Source: a phage. From it: DNA of 64,000 nt. The notes beneath the pieces are model-generated. The model was not told the DNA's origin and ran no database searches. It worked only from the letters and a program-made list of their open reading frames with translations. Location: sequence record NC_135731.1, one strand, 5' to 3'. Positions 845 through 39,306 of the stretch are shown piece after piece (position 1 is the stretch's first letter; every line of letters begins with the position of its first letter). A program made the translations under genes and the position numbers.

Positions 845-2401
845 TTAATTTTCCATGTTGGATATGGAATTATCTCTGGTTGATGACATCTTAGAAGTGC
901 CGTTGCCAGTGGATCCTGCAGCCATTCCATCACCAGCCCTACTGATGTCCTGGCCCAAAAGCTTCATCAGCTCTTCCTGATCCATGTCCTCGTCAAATCT
1001 TTCATCAAACCCGCCTACTTCAAGAATCTTATTAATTACTGCAGGAGTTTTTGGCAAGTAACCTACAGCACCGATCCTCTGGACAAACTTGGAGAAGCTC
1101 TCCATATCCACTTCTTCAATCAGACCAGGTTTCAGTTTAGGCATATCATCATCTTCGAGGATGATACCATTCAATGCCAGAAGCTGTGGAATAAGATCTT
1201 TATTGAAGGCCTCAGTGATAATATCTATATCACGCTGAACAAAATGACCATGGATAGACTGTTTTGACTCAGACAGAGAGAAAGATCCGACGTTATCGTT
1301 ACCGAGGTTAATAAAGCCAGCACCGAAACGGTCAAGAATCGCCTTCTTACGGGCATCAATCAAATCTTTAGTGGAATACTGCTTACCCATACCGTCAACC
1401 CCTTTCAGGGTCATGGAGTAAAGCTCTTTACCAGACTTATCTCTATCAGACGGGAGTATAAAGAAACTTTGCTCACCACTATGGGCGTTTGCTGCGTCAA
1501 GCATAAGGTCTGCAACCATTCTCCCTTCCATTGAATTCGGGTCAATGCTGGCCTTGTTCAAAATATTGGAAGGAATTTTCAGCTCAAGCACACCACCAAG
1601 GTCTTTGGAACAGCCAACAACCTCAAGGTTTTCAATCAGAACTTTCTCACGGAAAGATCTGTAGCAACCTATCATCGGTGACACACCCGCAGGGTTAGAT
1701 TCTGTTCCTGACAGGGTCATGAGCATAAGCTTTTTAGCAGGGATGAAAATTTCAGGCTCATTAAAGCCTTTTGAAGGCATTGCAGCAAGAGGTCCAGCCC
1801 AGCGTGCATTCTGAGTGTTTAGAAATGCATTAGGTGACTGATAAATACCTGTCAGTGTTCTACTATTCTTGTCAAAGACAAACGGCTCTGATCTGGACAG
1901 ACTGGCCTGAGGTCGGAATGCAATTTTATCAATAAGAAGCATCCCGGCATATTTACCTTCTTTCTCTCTGCGGTATACTTTCTCAAACAGTGAAAAACCA
2001 TACTCGTTAAAGGTAGCTGCGCTTCTTGCAATATCCCGAAGGGTTTGTTGGTTTGCCAAATTACGCAAAGAATACTCTATAAGCTCGGCAGCTTTCTTAG
2101 AGTCTTCACTTTTAACATTATAAAGGATCTTAAAATCATTGAACGCTTTCGTGATGAAAACATATTTTGTATCTAAGGCAGTAGCAACTGTGGAATCACA
2201 TTTCATAGTCTCCACTGTGGCAATCAGCTGAGGCCAACGCAATTCCTCAACCATCATAGATTGCGATTCTGCCATAATTTGGGAAAGTGCGCCAGAACCG
2301 ATCTCACTCATACGAACATTATGAGTTGGTGCGCCTGCGTTCCCAGATTTATTCACAGTTTTGGCTGTGGCGTTGTGTTTCCTGCGGTTCTTTTTGGACA
2401 C
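845..2401 (-). CDS. portal protein (putative)
   Basis: 518 aa ORF directly downstream of large terminase, followed by protease-like gene; size and synteny typical of portal; no motif-level proof. Confidence 0.55.
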   Translation of the reverse strand: MSKKNRRKHNATAKTVNKSGNAGAPTHNVRMSEIGSGALSQIMAESQSMMVEELRWPQLIATVETMKCDSTVATALDTKYVFITKAFNDFKILYNVKSEDSKKAAELIEYSLRNLANQQTLRDIARSAATFNEYGFSLFEKVYRREKEGKYAGMLLIDKIAFRPQASLSRSEPFVFDKNSRTLTGIYQSPNAFLNTQNARWAGPLAAMPSKGFNEPEIFIPAKKLMLMTLSGTESNPAGVSPMIGCYRSFREKVLIENLEVVGCSKDLGGVLELKIPSNILNKASIDPNSMEGRMVADLMLDAANAHSGEQSFFILPSDRDKSGKELYSMTLKGVDGMGKQYSTKDLIDARKKAILDRFGAGFINLGNDNVGSFSLSESKQSIHGHFVQRDIDIITEAFNKDLIPQLLALNGIILEDDDMPKLKPGLIEEVDMESFSKFVQRIGAVGYLPKTPAVINKILEVGGFDERFDEDMDQEELMKLLGQDISRAGDGMAAGSTGNGTSKMSSTRDNSISNMEN

Positions 2402-2503
2402 AAGCTTTACCCCTCAAAACAGTATAACAAAATAGCCCTCGTGTTAGAGGGCTAGTATCTCCGATTACTCTATTCTACCACATCTAATTAAGATTGGCAA
2501 CAC

Positions 2504-3289
2504 TTAGATAAAACGCTTGAACATAGAAGGTGATGAGATTGATGGAATCACACAAGGAAGTGCTACCTCCTCTTTCTCCAGGAAATTAATCGCAGAAGCT
2601 ACACAGTCGGCCCAGTCGTCTTTTCTGTTAAATGTTGATCTTTCCCCGTTGAATTTTTCAAGTTCAGTCAGAAATGCTTCCAGAGTATCAGGATGGAAAC
2701 TGGATTTTACAATCCTCACCATTCCTTGTTGGGCAAGATTGGCAAAAGGTGAGAACCTTGTCAGTTTAGATTTGTTGGAAGGCATCGGGTCTTCTTCAAC
2801 CCTGAACCCTTCGGCGAGCAAGGATCTGGAGGAGGTTAAGAACTCACTCTTACCTGCCTGACCGGGGTCCACAGAGAATACGATTATACAATCATCACCA
2901 TCAAACTGCGCCTGTTTCCTGATGATCACATCTCGTTCACCAGCCTTTTTACAAAACTTACCTTCCAGACCTGTGGAATACCTCCCGTCATCCACGTTCT
3001 CAGGACAATAATCACCGGACAGGTAATAAAAGCCGTCACTATCTTTACTTACCTTAACACTGGCGGTAAAGTCAGGAAATTTATTACCGGAAGTTCTCTC
3101 GGTTCCTGCCTTATCCCATGCCCTGCAAGATACTGATCCAAGAGGTACTCTATCGGCATCACGAAGGAAAGATCTTTGAAAATAGTTTGCACCCTCAGGC
3201 TTTGCAAACCAGTTACCATGGAGAAGCTGAGCTTTTTCCAGCTCTGGTAGACCTTCGAGGAAAGCAAGGTATTCTGGGTTGTCTCTCAA
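2504..3289 (-). CDS. terL: terminase large subunit, C-terminal exon (nuclease domain)
   Basis: 261 aa fragment with no N-terminal ATPase motifs; frame open upstream to about 3310; separated from middle exon by HNH-containing insertion. Confidence 0.6.
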   Translation of the reverse strand: MRDNPEYLAFLEGLPELEKAQLLHGNWFAKPEGANYFQRSFLRDADRVPLGSVSCRAWDKAGTERTSGNKFPDFTASVKVSKDSDGFYYLSGDYCPENVDDGRYSTGLEGKFCKKAGERDVIIRKQAQFDGDDCIIVFSVDPGQAGKSEFLTSSRSLLAEGFRVEEDPMPSNKSKLTRFSPFANLAQQGMVRIVKSSFHPDTLEAFLTELEKFNGERSTFNRKDDWADCVASAINFLEKEEVALPCVIPSISSPSMFKRFI

Positions 3290-4280
3290 ACAGACAGGAT
3301 TATCGAATCCTTATATTCAAAGGTGGTCGCAACACCACCCTCCGCACCATTACGTGCTGCTGCATGTTACCATGCAGAGTAGACTATATCACCACCCATC
3401 TCAGGGTGCTTCGCTTTTCGAGCGCCATAAGCTTGCGCCCTACTCCCTCTCGGGATAGTCGTTGAACTACATTACCAATCGTAATTGTTTGAAATATAGG
3501 TGTAAGTCTTACGGTCTTTTATTCCTTTAACAACACTAAAACTTACTCCCCACTTCTTAGCTATTTTATTTACACACAAAACCCTATCACTAAGATCCTC
3601 GCAGATACCTATTATCTTGTGCTCACTTATCCTATTAGAGGTTGGCACTTTTCTAAAGTTAAACTCTTTAGAAATATCTGGGTATACTGAGCCATTCTTT
3701 ATACCACTTACAAGTGGTTGATTGACACCAAACATTTCACAAATGTCTTTTACCCTTGCACCTTGCTCTAACAGCCTACATATTTCAAGAGCAGTGGCAT
3801 CATCTAGGGACCTGTATTTATTGACATAGTCCTTTTTAAGTCCCATTTCATGAGCGTGATGTGTGTTTTCCTCAGGCGTTGTCCACTCAAGGTTCCATGC
3901 GGCGTTATTCAACTTATTACCATCCAGGTGGTTTACTTGAGTTTTCACGCTGGGATTATCATTATCAACAAAAGCCATAGCGATAACTCTATGGACTAGC
4001 ACTTGGAACTTTTTCCCGCCCTCGCACAAAGTGACCATAGCATAGCCAGTCTTTTTCTGCACATTAGGATGGAGGAATTTATTAGAATACAGACTGTAAA
4101 TTCTGCCATCGTATGTAGCACAATAATGATTGTAGCCTAAAAAGCCTAAATTTCTCATTTCAAACATCTCCCTACTACAGGTTCGGAAGGGTAATTATAG
4201 CTGCTGATTGTCCGTTTAGCAATCGGATTTTCCAGCAATTAACGAAGTTATTCGACGTGCATTTCTGCACGAAGCCACTA
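3290..4280 (-). mobile_element. putative group I intron 2 in terL, carrying HNH homing endonuclease
   Basis: Non-coding GC-rich flanks around HNH ORF; 3' core motif ccatgcaga..agactatatc (plus strand 3372-3395) shared with the other terL intron and, as GATAGTCTGG, with the nrdD intron; boundaries approximate. Confidence 0.5.
3472..4167 (-). CDS. HNH homing endonuclease (intron-encoded)
   Basis: HNH_3-type motif VHRVIAMAFVDN...VNHLDGNKLNNAAWNLEWTTPEENTHHA; located between terL exons. Confidence 0.8.
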   Translation of the reverse strand: MFEMRNLGFLGYNHYCATYDGRIYSLYSNKFLHPNVQKKTGYAMVTLCEGGKKFQVLVHRVIAMAFVDNDNPSVKTQVNHLDGNKLNNAAWNLEWTTPEENTHHAHEMGLKKDYVNKYRSLDDATALEICRLLEQGARVKDICEMFGVNQPLVSGIKNGSVYPDISKEFNFRKVPTSNRISEHKIIGICEDLSDRVLCVNKIAKKWGVSFSVVKGIKDRKTYTYISNNYDW

Positions 4281-4571
4281 TCATTTAATGGTTGCGCCTA
4301 TGAACGAGAATGACAACGGTCTTGGCTTGATCTCTACACCCAGTCCGTTAACCGTGGTGTATTTCTCTATCAACTCTTCCTTAGAGTCTCCCCAAATAAA
4401 TTCACCGTCGCGTCGGATAAAATATCTTTTCTTACCGCATTTTTCCGGATCTGGATACCCTTCATCGTCCAACCACCATCTAACCAGTTTGGCAAGCATG
4501 TGTTCTGAATCGGGGTTACAGCTGATAACCATTCTTGATGGATACTTTGACTGAGATCGCAGACGAGACAT
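4281..4571 (-). CDS. terL: terminase large subunit, middle exon
   Basis: SRMVISCNPD...LVRWWLDDEGYPD typical of terminase middle region; frame open upstream to about 4607; true splice junctions not determined. Confidence 0.55.
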   Translation of the reverse strand: MSRLRSQSKYPSRMVISCNPDSEHMLAKLVRWWLDDEGYPDPEKCGKKRYFIRRDGEFIWGDSKEELIEKYTTVNGLGVEIKPRPLSFSFIGATIK

Positions 4572-5484
4572 CAGGTAGTCTATCTGCTCCCATTCGAATT
4601 GTGTCGTTTATGTTCAGGCAAGGTCGCTAGTCTTGCCCCGCCATTTTCAGGCAGCTGCATGTCTCCATGCAGACCAGACTATATCTTATGAATGTGTAAA
4701 TACTCTGCCGCTCTAAGAATAGTTTCCTCATCTTCTTGGAAGAAACCTAAAGCTCTGTTGCATTTATCACAAAGCAACCCTCTTACAGCACCAGTTTTAT
4801 GGTCATGATCAACACAAAAGAAATCTCTGTACCCTTGCGTCCTATACTCATCGAGAGATATTCTACAAATGGCACACTTATGATCTTGATCTGAGAGTAG
4901 ACGATAGTATTCATCTTTTGTTATGTGAAATTTCTTCTCAATCTGATAAAACTTTTCACACATCTTACACCTGTTCGTAACCAGATATACTTTACCATAG
5001 TCACGTTTTGTGTAAAAACTATCAGCGAGCATACTTTCATGACAAGATTTGCATTCAAAAAGTTCACCTTTCTTCAGCAAGTCTTGAATAAATAATGCTG
5101 CGTCATCTCTCTTAACCATATTTTTGTTTTTACGAGATCCACCCTTCCTGTAGTACATATAGCATTCCTTGCATGTACCTGAGTATCCATCCTTGCTCTT
5201 AGATGATAAAAAGAAATCATCAATAGGTAGAACTCTTTGGCAATCCATACATTTTTTAGTATTACACATTCATCCTCCCGTTTCGAATCGCTTGATTCTA
5301 CGTCTTTCGACTAGTCGTTGAACGTTCATCCTCTCGGATGCTTCGCTGCGGATTATCTAAATTAACACACTGTTACCATACCTTCGATCTCTCTTCGAAG
5401 CCTCTATTATGTTACCATAGCAGGTTGGTGGTGTCAATAATAAAGATTTCCCCGCAATTAGGGAGGTTTTACGAGAGCTACAAA
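4572..5484 (-). mobile_element. putative group I intron 1 in terL, carrying EndoVII-like homing endonuclease
   Basis: Non-coding flanks around nuclease ORF; shared motifs gatatagtctgg and agactag (minus sense) just downstream of the ORF stop; boundaries approximate. Confidence 0.5.
4679..5269 (-). CDS. endonuclease VII-like (zinc-binding) homing endonuclease, intron-encoded
   Basis: Signature CVDHDHKTGAVRGLLCDKCNRALG matches the DHDH-TG-RG-LC-CN core of T4 endonuclease VII family; additional CxxC pairs. Confidence 0.75.
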   Translation of the reverse strand: MCNTKKCMDCQRVLPIDDFFLSSKSKDGYSGTCKECYMYYRKGGSRKNKNMVKRDDAALFIQDLLKKGELFECKSCHESMLADSFYTKRDYGKVYLVTNRCKMCEKFYQIEKKFHITKDEYYRLLSDQDHKCAICRISLDEYRTQGYRDFFCVDHDHKTGAVRGLLCDKCNRALGFFQEDEETILRAAEYLHIHKI

Positions 5485-5913
5485 TTAACCCTCATCGAAG
5501 CAAACCATGGTATACTCAAGCCCCTGGTGGTTAAGCTTATCTTGTACATACTCCATATGGCAGTATTTTACAACAGCTCCCTTTTTGCTTCTATCCCACT
5601 TACCAGTGTTCGGATCAAACCGTGGAAAAATGAACTTATGATCCTTCTCTCTGAACTTTGGCTTAATGTTTTCAGGCAGATCACTATAAATAGCTACTGC
5701 TTTAGGCCATAGTCCACCCTCACCTTCCAACTGTGGGGTTGTTCTTCGGAACATAACCACAGAACTATGGGGGTCATCAATAATTTTAAGTGGCATCAAC
5801 TGCAAGAGGAACGACTTGCCAGACCCTGCGGCACCGCCGATTACCAAAATATCTGCATCGTTTTCTAGGATCATCTTCTGCTTTTCAGAACACGGTCCGT
5901 AAATCTTAGACAT
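5485..5913 (-). CDS. terL: terminase large subunit, N-terminal exon (ATPase)
   Basis: Walker A VIGGAAGSGKSF; ends ...MVCFDEG (Walker B-like) immediately before in-frame stop, as expected at a group I 5' splice site. Confidence 0.65.
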   Translation of the reverse strand: MSKIYGPCSEKQKMILENDADILVIGGAAGSGKSFLLQLMPLKIIDDPHSSVVMFRRTTPQLEGEGGLWPKAVAIYSDLPENIKPKFREKDHKFIFPRFDPNTGKWDRSKKGAVVKYCHMEYVQDKLNHQGLEYTMVCFDEG

Positions 5914-6200
5914 TAACCTCTCTCCTTTGGAAACAGTGTTCTAATATAGTCTTGCAAAATGATCAATTTAGCTCTATCATTGCTACAAGACAGATTATTA
6001 TCCCTCATAATGCCAGAATTCACTGCATCTGGAGCACCTTTCTTCAAAGGCATAGCTTTAGCAGGTGGTTTCATGGCACCTTCCGGGGGTTTAACAATCA
6101 ACCTTCCTACATCCGGAGGGTCAATCTTGTATTCTCTCTCAACGCTGGTTGCACACCCACATAATAACAAGCACACAATAAACAGTGTAGCAACTCTCAT
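5913..6200 (-). CDS. putative o-spanin (outer-membrane lipoprotein, Rz1-like)
   Basis: Signal peptide with lipobox-like LLLCGCATS, proline-rich, 95 aa, overlaps upstream i-spanin-like gene by 4 nt. Confidence 0.4.
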   Translation of the reverse strand: MRVATLFIVCLLLCGCATSVEREYKIDPPDVGRLIVKPPEGAMKPPAKAMPLKKGAPDAVNSGIMRDNNLSCSNDRAKLIILQDYIRTLFPKERG

Positions 6201-7016: not shown

Positions 7017-7093
7017 TGGTCTCCACGGAGTGATTCGAACACTCGACCTCCTGATCCCAAATCAGGCGCTCTACCAAGCTGAGCTACGCGGAG
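7017..7093 (-). tRNA. tRNA-Pro (anticodon UGG)
   Basis: Minus sense CTCCGCGTAGCTCAGCTTGGTAGAGCGCCTGATTTGGGATCAGG...GTTCGAATCACTCCGTGGAGACCA; cloverleaf hand-folded, anticodon loop TTTGGGA, encoded CCA. Confidence 0.7.
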
Positions 7094-7104
7094 TATTTAT
7101 AATT

Positions 7105-7179
7105 TGGTGGCCCTGGGTGGAATTGAACCACCGTCTGGCGATTATGAGTCGCTTGCTTGAACCTTCCAGCTACAGGGCC
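7105..7179 (-). tRNA. tRNA with CAU anticodon (Met, fMet or Ile-lysidine)
   Basis: Minus sense GGCCCTG...anticodon loop CTCATAA...GGTTCAATTCCACCCAGGGCCACCA; acceptor and T-arm pair well, D-stem weak. Confidence 0.6.
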
Positions 7180-7180
7180 A

Positions 7181-7256
7181 TGGTGCTGATGGCAGGACTT
7201 GAACCTGCAACCTATTGATTACAAATCAATTGCACTACCAATTGTGCTACATCAGC
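7181..7256 (-). tRNA. tRNA-Thr (anticodon UGU)
   Basis: Minus sense GCTGATGTAGCACAATTGGTAGTGCAATTGATTTGTAATCAAT...GGTTCAAGTCCTGCCATCAGCACCA; all four arms fold. Confidence 0.75.
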
Positions 7257-7262
7257 AAAAAG

Positions 7263-7360
7263 GTGCTAGGTGATGGAATCGAACCATCTATGTATTCAAC
7301 GACTACCTCGTCTATTTTCAGGATTAAAAATCCTCGCCCTTGCCAAAGGGCTTACCTAGC
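7263..7360 (-). tRNA. atypical tRNA-like element (about 98 nt; anticodon unresolved, possibly UUU)
   Basis: Perfect acceptor stem GCTAGGT/ACCTAGC, D-arm GCCC..GGGC and T-arm GATGGTTCGATTCCATC, but about 31 nt lie between anticodon stem and T-stem and CCA is not encoded. Confidence 0.35.
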
Positions 7361-7458
7361 TCAGTATGTTGACCATGTTGCTAGTCGGCGATGACGACTG
7401 TAACATTTGATAATCCGGTTCTGCTTCCGGCTTTCGCTTAATTACAAGGCCAACAATG

Positions 7459-7549
7459 TGGCGGAGAGTAATGGAATCGAACCATCATCGAGTCATCCTC
7501 AATGGGACGGTTTTCAAGACCGCTTGAGCACCATTGCTCCCTACCCTCC
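7459..7549 (-). tRNA. tRNA-Ser (anticodon UGA), type II
   Basis: Minus sense GGAGGGT...anticodon arm GCGGTCTTGAAAACCGT...long variable arm...GGTTCGATTCCATTACTCTCCGCCA; 91 nt; anticodon arm matches E. coli tRNA-Ser(UGA). Confidence 0.65.
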
Positions 7550-7663
7550 TTTATAAATTATACTGATAATGACACTGATTTTCGAGCAGTTAGTGACTAG
7601 TATAAACGACGATAAATATCAATGCCATTATCTGTATTATTTATGCATCTAAAAATATAAATT

Positions 7664-7750
7664 TGGTGGGGAGTGGTGGAGTCGAACCACCCGAGTCGCA
7701 ATGACAATAGATTTACAGTCTACACCGCTACCTCTACGGGATAACTCCCC
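7664..7750 (-). tRNA. tRNA-Tyr (anticodon GUA), type II
   Basis: Minus sense GGGGAGT...TAGACTGTAAATCTA...GGTTCGACTCCACCACTCCCCACCA; 87 nt; anticodon loop CTGTAAA. Confidence 0.65.
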
Positions 7751-7754
7751 AATT

Positions 7755-7829
7755 TGGCACCCCGTACTGGACTCGAACCAGTGTCAACGGCTTAGAAGGC
7801 CGCTGCTTTATCCACTAAGCTAACAGGGT
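7755..7829 (-). tRNA. tRNA-Arg (anticodon UCU)
   Basis: Minus sense ACCCTGTTAGCTTAGTGGATAAAGCAGCGGCCTTCTAAGCCGT...CTGGTTCGAGTCCAGTACGGGGTGCCA; A1:U72 acceptor pair. Confidence 0.6.
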
Positions 7830-31299: not shown

Positions 31300-31578
31300 A
31301 TGAGCTGCGAAAAATCTTTTTTCATCATCATTTACGGTAAGGATAACTGCCCACATTGTGTAAGAGCAAAAGAATTTGCAGTCAGCAAAGGCATACCTTT
31401 CGTATACAAGACGCTAGGTGAAGGATATACAAAAGAAGAGCTTATCGAGAAGTGTAGCCCATTTGTTCCCAGAACGTTGCCTCAGATTTTCTTAGAAAGC
31501 GACCTTGACAGTGTCCATATCGGAGGTGCTGACGATTTCATCTCTTTTGTTAAGAATGGTTTTGGAGAGAAAAAGTGA
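31300..31578 (+). CDS. glutaredoxin/thioredoxin-like protein (NrdH/NrdC-like)
   Basis: CPHC active site in YGKDNCPHCVRAKEF; 92 aa; between nrdB and nrdD. Confidence 0.65.
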   Translation: MSCEKSFFIIIYGKDNCPHCVRAKEFAVSKGIPFVYKTLGEGYTKEELIEKCSPFVPRTLPQIFLESDLDSVHIGGADDFISFVKNGFGEKK

Positions 31579-32438
31579 AAGTTGTAAAACGGGACGGTAG
31601 AGAAGAGTTTTATAACGGAATTAAGGTGATCAAGGCGGCAGAGTCCGCCTTACTTGAGTCTGGACATACTGAAGAAGAAGCTTACCGGATTGCCTGCGCG
31701 GTTAATGAAGTTGTTGCCAATAATCTGCCAACCGACCAGTGCACGATTTCTGTAAAAAATATCCATATCCTTGTTGAAGATGCTCTTATGGATATGGGTT
31801 TAAAATGTGCAGCCCGAGAATACATCCAGTATAGACAGACAAGAGATAATAACAGAGAGGCAGGTGGAAAGCTGCTTGCAGATATTAGTGGCTTCTTGGA
31901 TCGTACTTGTGATGAATTTACAAAAGAAAACGCAAATAAGCCTACTAATCATGTACACACTCATCGTGACCTGCTTGCAGGCATCCTTAGCAAACACCTT
32001 GCGTCAACACAGATCCTGCCAGATCGTGTCTCAGAAGAGCACAACAAGGGCTTCATCCATGTGCATGATCTTGACTACTTGATCAGTCCGTTAACAAACT
32101 GTTGTTTGGTAAATTATCCGGATATGCTGGAAAACGGATTCAACATTGGCAACGCCCATGTCAGTAAGCCGAAGTCAATAGGGGTTGCAACAACAATCCT
32201 TAGCCAAATCTCTAGTGCAGTAGCTAGTGCTCAATATGGCGGTCAGACCATGAGCCATATTGATCATTATCTGGCACAGTATGCTGAAGCAACCTATGAG
32301 AAGAACCTTAAATTTTGTCAGGAACATTGGTTGCCAGATGCTGAGACTGTTGCAATGCAAATGACAGATAAAGACGTGTTTGATAGTATGCAAACTTTGC
32401 TCTACCAAATCAATACGTTAACTTCTGTCAACGGTTAA
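31575..32438 (+). CDS. nrdD: anaerobic ribonucleoside-triphosphate reductase, 5' exon
   Basis: ATP-cone VVKRDGREEFYNGIKV; FIHVHDLDY block; GTG start; ORF ends at stop where intron-like insertion begins. Confidence 0.7.
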   Translation: MKVVKRDGREEFYNGIKVIKAAESALLESGHTEEEAYRIACAVNEVVANNLPTDQCTISVKNIHILVEDALMDMGLKCAAREYIQYRQTRDNNREAGGKLLADISGFLDRTCDEFTKENANKPTNHVHTHRDLLAGILSKHLASTQILPDRVSEEHNKGFIHVHDLDYLISPLTNCCLVNYPDMLENGFNIGNAHVSKPKSIGVATTILSQISSAVASAQYGGQTMSHIDHYLAQYAEATYEKNLKFCQEHWLPDAETVAMQMTDKDVFDSMQTLLYQINTLTSVNG

Positions 32439-33286
32439 CAAACTGGCCGTTGTAAAACTCTCCTAACCTCATAAGAGGGGTCGGTAAATCCGGCTAACGG
32501 GGAACGCTAAGGCGAAAGCTATGCCAATCCCGTGACTAGTTCTTACAGGAGTTGGAACGGTTGTAACGACTAACGAAAGGCAGAGATGCTTGACAAACAT
32601 TTCTGAACCAAGTAGTGTAGGGGTTAGTTGAAATACTAACTTCGAAATGGAGAGGCTCTATGAAAAAGATCATTCTTAATGGTGAAGAATCAAACTATGT
32701 GATTGATGAGGTTGGAAACGTATACGGAAAACGTGGAATGCTACACCCAATATTGTGGGGAGGTTATGGAAAAGGTAACAAGCATGTTAAACGCCGTTAT
32801 ATGTACTCTTTCAACCACAAAGGTAAAAAGATTCGAATCCAAACCTCAAGGATTGTTGCCTTGTATTGTTTGCCAGATGTCCCAGAAGACCCTGAAAACT
32901 GGGAAGTGAATCATAAAGACGGCAATACATTGAATGATCATCCGTCTAACCTAGAGTGGGTTTTGCCGGAAGATAATAAGAGACATGCTTTCCGAACAGG
33001 GCTTTGCCCAGGTAAGTGCTATAGGAAAGTGCAGGCATACAAAGGGAAAACCTTGGTTGGTGAATATCCTTCACTCTATGCCTGTGCAAAAGCCTTAAAT
33101 TTGAACGTAGGTAACGTTCATAGGGCTATCGAAGGAAATGCCGAAGGTAAGCATCTCACAATAAAGGGTTATTATCTTATTGAAGTAGAGTAAGAGATAG
33201 TCTGGCCCTGTGGAAACACAGGGAGGAGACAGCAGACTCCATTCATCACATTAAGTTTAGGTCTGGACACCTCAGTATTTGGTAGA
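32439..33286 (+). mobile_element. putative group I intron in nrdD, carrying HNH homing endonuclease
   Basis: About 220 nt structured non-coding 5' segment, HNH ORF, then 3' segment with GATAGTCTGG...CAGACTC shared with terL introns; boundaries approximate. Confidence 0.55.
32660..33193 (+). CDS. HNH homing endonuclease (intron-encoded)
   Basis: HNH_3 motif VNHKDGNTLNDHPSNLEWVLPEDNKRHA; 177 aa. Confidence 0.8.
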   Translation: MKKIILNGEESNYVIDEVGNVYGKRGMLHPILWGGYGKGNKHVKRRYMYSFNHKGKKIRIQTSRIVALYCLPDVPEDPENWEVNHKDGNTLNDHPSNLEWVLPEDNKRHAFRTGLCPGKCYRKVQAYKGKTLVGEYPSLYACAKALNLNVGNVHRAIEGNAEGKHLTIKGYYLIEVE

Positions 33287-34495
33287 ATGATTACCAAAAA
33301 CTACTTGAAAGTCCACAAAATGGGTCTTGGTGAAGAACGTATCACACCTGTGTTCCCTAAAGTGCTGTTCTTCCTAGAAGAGGGTGTCAACATGAACCCT
33401 GGAGATCCTAACTATGATTTGAAACGATTAGCTCTGGAATGCTCTGCAGAGCGGATTTATCCTGACTTTGTTTCTGTTCCACTAAATCGTAAAGTGACAG
33501 GCTCGACAGATGGCAAAGTAACGAGCATGGGTTGCCGGAGTTTTCTTAGCAAATACAATGACTTGGAAACAGGTGAGGAGAAATACCTCGGCAGATTCAA
33601 CTTGGGTGTTGTTAGTCTTAACCTACCAATGATTGCGGCAAAAGCTAAGACGGAAGGTGTTGATTTCTTTGCCGTTCTTGACGAATACCTGGATCTTGCA
33701 TACGAGGCTCACCTTGTAAGGGTTAACCGTCTAAAAGGAACAAAGGCAGGGCAGAACCCTATCATGTGGTGTGAAGGCGCTCTTGCTCGCCTGGATCCTG
33801 AAGAGAGTATTGATAAACTCTTCTATGACGGGTACGCTTCCATCAGTATTGGGTATATTGGTGTGTATGAAACCTGTCAGATTTTGGGCAGGGAGGGTGA
33901 CAAGGCTTTAGCTCTTGGAATACTCCAGCACATGAGAGATGCTTGTGAGCGATACAAGAAGGAAAGTGGACTAGCATTTAGCTTGTACGGAACCCCTTCT
34001 GAGAGTCTATGCTATAAAGCTGCAACCTGTCTGGATCGTGAATATCCTGAAGTGTTGAAGCACGAGCATGAATATCTCACCAACAGTTTCCATCAGCCAG
34101 TATGGATCAATAGCTCTCCTTTTGATAAGTGGAAGTATGAGGAAGGTTTTGCTATGATCTCCTCTGGTGGCAACATCGGATATGTAGAGACACCAAATCT
34201 GAAAAACAACTTAGATGCTTTAGAGGCTCTTGTTGACTTCGGGTATAAACACATTATGTATTTTGGTATTAACCAACCTGTGGATAAATGTCTCAAGTGT
34301 GGTTTCTCTGGTGAGTTTAGTGCAACAGCTAAAGGCTTTGTATGCCCAGAGTGTGGAAACCATGAAGAGGGAACGATCAGTGTAATTCGACGTGTGTCTG
34401 GATACCTTTCCAGTCCTAACTCCCGTCCTTATAATAAAGGTAAGCAAGCGGAAGTTATCGAGAGAGTTAAGCACTATGGAAGTTGTAGTTGCTGA
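33287..34495 (+). CDS. nrdD: anaerobic ribonucleoside-triphosphate reductase, 3' exon
   Basis: Glycyl-radical motif RRVSGYL and C-terminal zinc ribbon CLKCG...CPECG; frame open upstream to 33194, exact exon start undetermined. Confidence 0.75.
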   Translation: MITKNYLKVHKMGLGEERITPVFPKVLFFLEEGVNMNPGDPNYDLKRLALECSAERIYPDFVSVPLNRKVTGSTDGKVTSMGCRSFLSKYNDLETGEEKYLGRFNLGVVSLNLPMIAAKAKTEGVDFFAVLDEYLDLAYEAHLVRVNRLKGTKAGQNPIMWCEGALARLDPEESIDKLFYDGYASISIGYIGVYETCQILGREGDKALALGILQHMRDACERYKKESGLAFSLYGTPSESLCYKAATCLDREYPEVLKHEHEYLTNSFHQPVWINSSPFDKWKYEEGFAMISSGGNIGYVETPNLKNNLDALEALVDFGYKHIMYFGINQPVDKCLKCGFSGEFSATAKGFVCPECGNHEEGTISVIRRVSGYLSSPNSRPYNKGKQAEVIERVKHYGSCSC

Positions 34496-39268: not shown

Positions 39269-39306
39269 TTGTGTATTGTTGTTTTCAACAAGAGGGGGGG
39301 TCATTT

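Follow-up and report, generated by a model that had tools for sequence, protein, structure and literature searches.

Is the gene for the large terminase subunit (terL) of this phage a single transcription unit interrupted by two introns, or has it been broken into separate genes by the endonuclease open reading frames (ORFs) that lie within it? The window, a stretch of 64,000 nucleotides (nt) of phage DNA, matches Escherichia phage phiWec196 (LC739542) at 100% identity; this E. coli phage is a Vequintavirus (rV5-like) and a viable isolate. Its relatives are rV5-like phages. An earlier note, made from the letters of the sequence, had proposed that terL lies on the minus strand in three exons, separated by two intron-like insertions with different homing endonucleases. 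Here we find that the proposed arrangement holds; the spliced product is 100% identical to an intact TerL. We put the probability at about 0.93 that terL of phiWec196 forms one pre-mRNA with two mobile, self-splicing group I introns of the IA type, similar to those of td and nrdB.

terL exons and the joined product

The earlier note had placed a Walker A piece of terL at 5485–5913, a middle piece at 4281–4571 and a C-terminal piece at 2504–3289. Profile matches support all three locations (Terminase_6N, E = 1e-5; Terminase_6N profile 117–163; and Terminase_6C, respectively), but the ends given were ORF limits, running from the first start codon to the stop, and were off by 3, 7/33 and 19 nt. 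BLAST comparison with intronless, ORF-less and ORF-containing relatives, in particular with the intronless terL of phage FV3, set the exon and intron limits with single-base precision, so that the junctions are now placed to the nucleotide (Table 1).

Table 1 Features of the terL locus in the window
Feature	Position	Strand	Description
terL exon 1	5488..5913	-	aa 1–142; collinear with FV3 terL to this base; Terminase_6N match
terL intron 1	4605..5487	-	group I, 883 nt; RF00028; absent from FV3, PDX and WM with precise junction
Intron 1, 5′ ribozyme part	5487–5274	-	P1–P7, P7.1, P7.2, P3′
Intron 1, ORF module	5273–4690	-	in P8 loop
Intron 1 ORF	4679..5269	-	196 aa; endonuclease VII-type (His-Me finger) putative homing endonuclease; Pfam PF02945
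Intron 1, 3′ part	4689–4605	-	P7′, P9, P9.x, terminal G4605
terL exon 2	4288..4604	-	aa 143–248, TQFEW...FIGATI; collinear with FV3 terL
terL intron 2	3309..4287	-	group I, 979 nt; RF00028 half-hits; absent from FV3, LL12 and JES2013
Intron 2, 5′ part	4287–4200	-	P1, P2, P3, P4, P5
Intron 2, ORF module	4199–3468	-	in P6 loop
Intron 2 ORF	3472..4167	-	231 aa; I-HmuI-like HNH homing endonuclease; Pfam HNH_3
Intron 2, 3′ part	3467–3309	-	P7, P7.1, P7.2, P3′, P8, P7′, P9, P9.1, P9.2, terminal G3309
terL exon 3	2504..3308	-	aa 249–515 and stop; collinear with FV3 terL; Terminase_6C match
Terminator-like hairpin and T-run	2433..2454	-	intrinsic type; downstream of terL; pattern scan

Joined at these limits, the exons form a 1548-nt frame for a TerL of 515 amino acids (aa). 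The note had suggested aligning the concatenated exons to an intact TerL, and this alignment is contiguous and identical: over 515 aa the product matches the uninterrupted FV3 TerL at 100%. All 39 nucleotide differences between the spliced gene and that of FV3 are synonymous (39/39), and the spliced frame is under purifying selection. The product also matches phrog_979 (aa 1–513, 695 bits) and, in a single stretch, Terminase_6N (aa 25–294, 72 bits, versus 25.6 and 19.1 bits for the separate pieces). The three-exon structure is far beyond chance.

Exon 1 encodes the Walker A (GGAAGSGKS) and Walker B (VCFDEG) motifs, and intron 1 is inserted directly after the DE of Walker B; exon 3 completes the ATPase domain and encodes the RNase H-like nuclease domain. 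Because a search of PDB sequences with the spliced TerL gave no meaningful match, the insertion sites are unplaced on a solved terminase, and the motif positions are stated from sequence alone. In rV5, the site equivalent to the hairpin downstream of terL is annotated as a rho-independent terminator.

Stop codons lie 0–2 codons into each insertion; intron 1 opens with an in-frame TAA directly after exon 1. As the earlier note had argued, splicing would be needed to make TerL, and it would be obligatory for packaging because translation of the unspliced message halts at these codons.

Two group I ribozyme cores

Rfam group I models, another check that the note had suggested, match both insertions on the minus strand. 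At the gathering threshold (50 bits for RF00028) the window yields tRNAs only, and the introns are seen in E-value mode alone, their copies falling just below the gathering score because of ORF insertions of 0.6–0.7 kb. Intron 1 scores 47.6 bits (E = 3e-10, spanning 5497–4655), and intron 2 gives half-hits of 24.3 bits (4297–3936) and 34.9 bits (3598–3360) with the ORF between them. The test was applied to ORF-less orthologues that are 97–98% identical in the ribozyme, and it is through these, at 79–93 bits, that RF00028 membership is reached, the window copies themselves being under the cut-off. For intron 1 the orthologues are those of LL12 and A147 (319/320 nt; flanks 97–99% identical; 79.4/84.1 bits) and for intron 2 those of WM and A147 (266/268 nt; 92.7 and 87.5 bits).

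The structural detail agrees with this assignment. In the Rfam alignment both introns carry the P, Q, R and S elements (AAUUGCGGG / AAUCCGCAGC / GUUCAACGACUA / GAUAUAGUC), and both contain the conserved core helices P3–P9, including the P3/P7 pseudoknot, in sequences collinear with the T4 td core. Each ends in a G and has a P1 helix with the splice site at a U·G pair; the nrdD intron shares both features. In intron 1, GAGGGU|UA pairs with UAGCUCUC, so that U5488, the final base of exon 1, takes part in the U·G pair of P1; in intron 2, CCAU|UA pairs with UAGUGG and the pair is U4288·G. The terminal bases G4605 and G3309 (omega-G) stand directly before the exon sequence set by intronless relatives. 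Between P7 and P3′ both introns have the P7.1 and P7.2 hairpins that mark subgroup IA (td-like, IA2). Intron 1 has GUCGAGAGAC and GAAUCAAGCGAUUC; the pair in intron 2 is UCCCGAGAGGGA and GGGCGC...GCGCUC. By similarity to td rather than by a formal classifier, both would belong to IA2 and not to IA1 or IA3, and the 3′ 79 nt of intron 1 share 82% identity with the corresponding end of the td intron of T4. The minimum-free-energy fold of ORF-less intron 1 recovers P3, P4, P5, P6, P7.1, P7.2, P8 and P9 (z = −4.5). For intron 2, a hand-drawn structure has 98.9% of cells paired versus 33–47% when slid, with three compensatory pairs among four sequences, in P2, P5 and P9.2, which is thin support from covariation. 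Introns 1 and 2 both belong to the T4 td/nrdB type of group I intron, and each has its own homing endonuclease gene. A group II intron reading was rejected.

The earlier note had also read a core motif, shared by the two terL insertions and an insertion in nrdD, as the sign of a single intron family whose endonuclease cargo had been swapped. The motif itself is real: GATATAGTCT and TTCAACGACTA each occur in exactly one copy in both terL insertions, and GAGATAGTCT in the nrdD insertion is a copy with one mismatch. It is, however, the R/S (P7) catalytic core, which is near-universal in group I introns, and the family reading, taken strictly, is not supported. BLAST-detectable likeness between introns 1 and 2 is limited to 35 nt (P7′–P9), in which each resembles T4 td at least as closely as it does the other terL intron, and BLAST detects no similarity between the nrdD intron and either of them. 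Global pairwise alignment of the three cores is uninformative, its identities of 0.63–0.72 being barely above the 0.60–0.67 of shuffled sequences. The scant local likeness, together with the placing of the ORFs in different loops (P8 versus P6), points to different introns of one broad phage IA-type class that were invaded independently by endonucleases.

Endonuclease genes, mobility and alternative readings

The two ORFs proved to be of the kinds that the note had named, endonuclease VII-like and HNH. The intron 1 protein matches PF02945 (Endonuclease_7) at 76.1 bits (cut-off 23.6; aa 110–192) as well as PHROG endonuclease VII families, has the His-Me finger domain with Zn-binding cysteines, contains the CVDHDHKTGAVRGLLCDKCN motif and has a Cys-rich N terminus (CxxC ×4); its nearest solved structures are Hpy99I (3FC3; E = 1e-5) and T4 endo VII (1E7D; E = 6e-4). 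A protein of this type could in principle have another role. The GGAGG Shine–Dalgarno sequence of this ORF (5278–5274) lies within P3′, its stop codon overlaps the P7′ element, and a helix of about 16 bp (−18.4 kcal/mol) between its two ends restores P8. The intron 2 protein has an N-terminal DNA-binding region like that of I-HmuI and matches HNH_3 (29.6 bits; cut-off 24.8), phrog_59 (176 bits) and, over 144 residues that include the HNH (beta-beta-alpha-metal) motif (aa 11–154), I-HmuI (PDB 1U3E; E = 4e-12), and it ends in a helix–turn–helix region. Its true start is likely to be the second ATG, at 4158, 9 nt past GGGAG. The rV5 orthologue is annotated as an ‘HNH homing endonuclease’. Internal promoters for these ORFs are speculative; a sigma-70 promoter scan gave 13 matches versus 8.8 ± 3.2 by chance, which is not above expectation.

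Among the relatives, each intron can be absent, ORF-less or ORF-containing, and 8 of the 9 possible combinations for introns 1 and 2 are found; the 317 bp of exon 2 separate the two insertions. Synonymous exon markers co-segregate with intron presence in 8/8 genomes: the intron 1 site reads GGT|ACA CAA with the intron and GGC/GGA ACG without it, and the intron 2 site reads ACC AT|A with and ACA ATC/ATA without. Every intron-containing allele has U at position −1; intronless alleles have C or A there in the case of intron 1.

From sequence, we infer that both introns are spliced in vivo and that their endonucleases are active, with a target in terL, and support homing. In the scheme we propose, terL would be transcribed as a single pre-mRNA that carries both introns. 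Each ribozyme would use exogenous guanosine and cut after the U of the P1 U·G pair (U5488, U4288), and the exons would be ligated after the terminal G (G4605, G3309) to give the continuous 1548-nt frame. In a mixed infection, the endonucleases would cut or nick intronless terL near the insertion site, and recombinational repair would copy the intron into the recipient gene along with synonymous exon markers close by. A further idea, which we regard as possible but doubtful, is that the introns serve as interference weapons between co-infecting Vequintaviruses, with P8 of intron 1 coupling endonuclease translation to folding. Cutting a rival’s intronless packaging gene would bias inheritance and depress the rival’s packaging, and P8, formed by the ends of the intron 1 ORF, would bury the Shine–Dalgarno sequence and AUG and so could couple translation of the endonuclease to folding of the ribozyme. 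The set of 8/9 states would offer a natural, tractable system for the full homing cycle and for co-conversion tract lengths.

The same survey bears on whether the introns have decayed, such that splicing needs a protein cofactor (from the host, the phage or an ORF-encoded maturase) or the ORFs are inactive and mobility has been lost. Intron 1 occurs in at least about 64 phage records and its ORF (at least 95% identity) in at least 29; for intron 2 the counts are at least about 34 and at least 14. Vequintavirus records number about 127 in all, and these frequencies are approximate. ORF-less forms are common, as would be expected in the loss phase of homing. We nevertheless consider decay unlikely: the ORFs are intact and near-identical across many isolates (the endonuclease VII-type ORF at 99% identity or more in at least 22 records), both endonucleases retain their catalytic motifs, the ribozyme cores are canonical and close to td, and the eight states found across exon 2 imply ongoing exchange.

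It is far less probable still that free-standing homing endonuclease genes have fractured terL into three polypeptides that assemble without RNA splicing. Genes split around free-standing endonucleases are known from other phages, many GenBank records list each piece as a ‘terminase large subunit’ coding sequence of its own, and PHROGs has families for the fragments. Both ORFs, however, are flanked by complete group I ribozyme cores, and free-standing endonucleases cannot explain the ORF-less forms of both insertions. Neither a start codon nor a Shine–Dalgarno sequence stands at the true 5′ end of exon 2 or exon 3, and translation from the first in-frame ATG/TTG would lose 11 and 6 conserved residues, respectively.

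An intein or other protein-level element is scarcely credible, even though the divergent relative TH18 has an intein in Walker A of its terL, and is refuted by the sequence itself: both insertions begin with in-frame stop codons and contain structured non-coding RNA, each ORF has its own frame and its own ribosome-binding site, and Pfam gave no match to a Hint domain or intein in the window insertions. An assembly artefact is likewise out, the same structure being present in many independent genomes.

Relation to known introns

Two self-splicing group I introns in terL are an arrangement that is already known, real but ordinary. For rV5, terL has been described as a gene in three parts that contains a homing endonuclease (Kropinski et al. 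2013, Virol J 10:76; GenBank DQ832317, ORF64ABC and ORF65). Phage rV5 shares with phiWec196 the gene, both insertion sites, both ribozymes (~98% nt identity), the HNH ORF of intron 2 and the three-exon terL; it differs in that its intron 1 is ORF-less. Like phiWec196, the HdK5 and A13b/A140/A141/A142 records carry in addition the endonuclease VII-type ORF, within P8 of intron 1, and JES2013 and many others have the ORF form of intron 1 alone, deposited as ‘endonuclease VII’.

Outside these phages, the closest parallels are the td, nrdB and nrdD (sunY) introns of T4 (I-TevI/II/III), which likewise have P7.1/P7.2, an in-frame stop just past the 5′ splice site and a peripheral helix from which the ORF loops out, and are sited in conserved catalytic regions of essential genes. 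Local identity between T4 td and the terL introns is 82–92% (P7′–P9–P9.2); for the nrdB intron of T4 and T4-like phages, local BLAST gives 71.6% with intron 1 and 81–84.5% with intron 2. The terL introns differ from those of T4 in their host gene and in carrying endonuclease VII-type and I-HmuI-like HNH proteins instead of the GIY-YIG I-TevI/II, and their splicing and homing are predicted. In the Bacillus phages SPO1 and SP82, DNA polymerase introns encode I-HmuI and I-HmuII, HNH homing endonucleases that nick DNA; the intron 2 protein is, like I-HmuI, intron-encoded and aligns with it across the HNH motif, but it sits in another intron and another host gene and has a longer C-terminal helix–turn–helix region. 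Group I introns also interrupt terL in Lactobacillus phage LL-H (Mikkonen & Alatossava 1995) and in the related Certrevirus Pectobacterium phage CB7, where RT-PCR demonstrated splicing of an HNH-containing terL intron (PMC7344957); both have a single intron, unlike phiWec196.

The case leaves knowledge of group I introns and of terminases unchanged. What it offers is a clean textbook case of mobile group I introns at catalytic motifs of an essential phage gene, with population data that cover every stage of the homing cycle. Its value lies chiefly in annotation: the exact junctions yield the correct 515-aa TerL, and in the source record LC739542 all seven ORFs here are labelled hypothetical. 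In GenBank, the terL intron of LL12 is annotated.

A terminase gene in three exons

The earlier note had read terL, the large terminase gene, as split by two introns with endonucleases, and this reading of the locus was correct. Over window 2400-6000 (minus strand, 3.6 kb) the sequence matches Escherichia phage phiWec196 (LC739542) at 100% identity and about 125 rV5-like (Vequintavirus) records at 96-99%, and its spanin/terL/portal order is that of rV5. All five open reading frames (ORFs) described in that note were recovered, each in the family assigned to it, although the values it had offered as exon ends are ORF limits rather than exon limits. We placed the junctions by aligning the window to the natural deletion series of its relatives, which comprises eight intron-state combinations, and a one-base ambiguity at each junction was settled by group I rules, which call for a U.G pair at the 5′ splice site and G as the last intron base.

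Features of the terL and nrdD regions (window coordinates)
Feature	Position	Strand	Basis or remark
Spanin genes	6595-5913	-	upstream of terL
terL exon 1	5913-5488	-	alignment to relatives with or without introns
Intron 1	5487-4605	-	883 nt; alignment to relatives
Intron 1 ORF	4679-5269	-	Endonuclease_7, 76 bits
terL exon 2	4604-4288	-	alignment to relatives with or without introns
Intron 2	4287-3309	-	979 nt; alignment to relatives
Intron 2 ORF	3472-4167	-	HNH_3 match
terL exon 3	3308-2504	-	alignment to relatives with or without introns
Terminator-like hairpin	2454-2433	-	downstream of terL
Portal gene	2401-845	-	downstream of terL
nrdD gene	31575-34495	+	interrupted by third group I intron
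nrdD intron	32436-33232	+	boundaries from intronless rV5 nrdD
nrdD intron ORF	32660-33193	+	HNH (I-HmuI-like); within nrdD intron

Joined, the exons give 1548 nt in frame, encoding a 515-aa protein that is the same at every residue as the annotated TerL of FV3, a relative with an uninterrupted gene. The spliced phiWec196 coding sequence differs from that of FV3 at 39 nt across all three exons, and all 39 differences are synonymous, which argues that selection acts on the spliced frame and not on fragments. Terminase_6N matches both upstream pieces and Terminase_6C the downstream one; the spliced protein matches Terminase_6N in a single stretch (72 bits, versus 25.6 and 19.1 bits for the separate fragments) and phrog_979 from end to end (695 bits). 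In both introns a stop codon comes 0-2 codons after the 5′ splice site. PHROGs keeps separate families for terL fragments (phrog_9526, aa 1-282; phrog_9453, aa 279-513).

The terL intron finding is already known. The paragraph 'Introns in terminase' of the rV5 paper gives terL in three segments, one with a homing endonuclease, and the location of the intron is credited to D. Shub in the acknowledgement (Kropinski et al. 2013). GenBank DQ832317 (rV5) joins the three pieces as ORF64ABC, with ORF65 as an HNH homing endonuclease; a terL intron is annotated in the LL12 announcement and record, and many records call the intron 1 ORF 'endonuclease VII'. RT-PCR has demonstrated splicing of an HNH-containing terL intron in CB7, a related Certrevirus (PMC7344957), and reviews name terminases as favoured phage targets of group I introns. 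The sole increment is that phiWec196 has both introns in ORF-containing form, as do HdK5 and four other deposited genomes; the practical value lies in correct annotation of the 515-aa TerL in phiWec196 and its relatives.

LC739542 labels all seven terL-region ORFs hypothetical. Window position p is record position 39301 - p, so the 64-kb window would overrun the start of the linear record; it presumably derives from a differently permuted genome copy. A cluster of at least six tRNA genes (7020-7829, minus strand) lies directly upstream of the spanin/terL block. Among these are a 97-nt tRNA match of low score (7264-7360) and two long-arm tRNAs (7463-7549 and 7668-7750) that score tRNA-Sec-like but probably belong to the type II Ser/Leu tRNAs, like those of rV5.

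Group I ribozymes and their endonuclease modules

Each insertion was matched by the Rfam group I model on the minus strand, intron 1 at 47.6 bits (E 3e-10) and intron 2 as two half-matches flanking its ORF (24.3 and 34.9 bits). These fall just under the gathering score of 50 bits because ORF modules of 0.6-0.7 kb interrupt them; ORF-less orthologues, with ribozyme parts 97-98% identical, score 79-93 bits. In both introns P1 brings a U.G wobble to the very junction (↓) that the intronless alleles define (GAGGGU↓UA with UAGCUCUC in intron 1, CCAU↓UA with UAGUGG in intron 2), and the final base is G. Both have canonical P/Q/R/S elements (AAUUGCGGG, AAUCCGCAGC, GUUCAACGACUA, GAUAUAGUC) and, between P7 and P3′, the P7.1/P7.2 hairpins that characterize subgroup IA. 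For intron 2, we scored 13 helices drawn by hand on four orthologues, one of them from phage TH18 (75% identical): 98.9% of cells are paired, versus 33-47% in slid controls, and compensatory double changes occur in P2, P5 and P9.2, evidence that is thin but consistent with the drawn fold.

The intron 1 ORF (196 aa) has a cysteine-rich N-terminal half and a C-terminal endonuclease VII/His-Me finger domain (PF02945), with Hpy99I and T4 endonuclease VII as closest solved relatives. Its module (5273-4690) stands where the ORF-less intron has a 22-nt P8 hairpin (GUAAGCGGUUGUUGUCGCUUAU), and pairing between the module's first 16 nt and last 17 nt (-18.4 kcal/mol) restores P8. The module ends (5280-5255 and 4705-4676, minus strand) are inverted repeats (ATGAATGTGTAA-TACT and AGTATTTACACATTCAT). 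The restored helix holds the endonuclease AUG. The GGAGG Shine-Dalgarno before it forms the 3′ strand of P3, and at the other end of the ORF the stop codon and P7′ overlap. This arrangement suggests that ribozyme folding may limit endonuclease translation by occluding initiation, as is known for T4 intron ORFs.

The intron 2 ORF (231 aa) aligns to I-HmuI (PDB 1U3E; E 4e-12). Its module (4199-3468) replaces a 21-nt P6a hairpin of the ORF-less form, so the two introns have their ORFs in different loops. Upstream of the HNH ORF is a sigma-70-like TTGCTA-17-TATAAT (4222-4194, minus strand), its -10 hexamer within the module missing from ORF-less intron 2; the sigma-70-like pattern scan across the region gave a match count that did not exceed chance.

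Intron states among relatives

Eight of the nine combinations of two introns in three states were observed, despite the mere 317 bp between the introns.

Intron states in rV5-like phages
Phage	Intron 1	Intron 2
FV3	absent	absent
LL12	ORF-less	absent
WM	absent	ORF-less
A147	ORF-less	ORF-less
JES2013	with endonuclease VII-type ORF	absent
PDX	absent	with HNH ORF
rV5	ORF-less	with HNH ORF
phiWec196, HdK5	with ORF	with ORF

Among the matches listed, about 64 of roughly 127 close relatives have intron 1 at an identity of at least 95% and about 29 have its ORF; intron 2 occurs in about 34 and the HNH ORF in about 14. Of 44 close relatives listed at an identity of at least 95%, 21 match the query over just 48% of its length, as intronless FV3 does, which suggests that about half have neither intron. 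In each of the eight genomes examined, synonymous exon bases beside the insertion sites co-vary with the presence of the intron (intron 1, GGT↓ACA CAA when present versus GGC/GGA ACG; intron 2, ACC AT↓A versus ACA ATC/ATA). Such co-segregation is expected from homing with co-conversion, combined with the need of P1 for U at -1 and, in intron 2, also C at -3; the alleles may mark endonuclease-resistant targets. For phiWec196 we propose that both introns would self-splice and that their endonucleases would mediate homing, a mechanism to which both the sequence and the comparison of relatives lend good support.

About 18 'UNVERIFIED Campylobacter phage' records (MG0656xx) share about 98% identity with E. 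coli rV5-like phages and probably carry the wrong label.

Relation to other phage introns

A BLAST of the introns against all phage records returned local similarity to T4. The 3′ end of the td intron is 82% identical to the last 79 nt of intron 1, and td is 92% identical to P7′-P9 of intron 2; the nrdB intron of T4 and T4-like phages matches locally at 71.6% (intron 1) and 81-84.5% (intron 2). Both are thus ordinary members of the phage td/nrdB-like class. The motif that the earlier note saw shared among the terL and nrdD introns is present, but it is the R/S pairing (P7) of the core, found in most group I introns. The note's suggestion of one family with swapped cargo gained no support in the strict sense: introns 1 and 2 have just one BLAST-detectable stretch in common (35 nt, 86% identity), neither has one in common with the nrdD intron, and we saw no sign of one backbone exchanging endonucleases. 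All three belong to one broad phage type within group I.

The nrdD intron, in the anaerobic ribonucleotide reductase gene, has its 5′ splice site after U32435, ends on G33232, pairs AACGGU↓U with GGCCGUU in P1 and, as found in the window, scores just 27.7 bits on Rfam. rV5 nrdD does not have it, and phage AlexBoehm has a 257-nt ORF-less form. phiWec191 (LC739540), which is without this intron, has instead an insertion of about 770 nt at another nrdD site (1212-1981 of the compared sequence; window 33532/33542) with a different 'endonuclease' ORF; in EPFV3-03/2025, another relative, the match is in three pieces and contains a 'winged helix-turn-helix' ORF.

In Escherichia phage TH18 (ON075799), a divergent member of the Vequintavirinae, terL is interrupted still further. 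An intein of about 340 aa lies within its Walker A motif (GGAAG↓CLSKDH...VVVTGN↓SGKS), and about 10 codons before the intron 1 site there is an additional group I intron with no ORF (Rfam 34 bits, E 5e-6). TH18 also has the intron 2 homologue with its HNH ORF.
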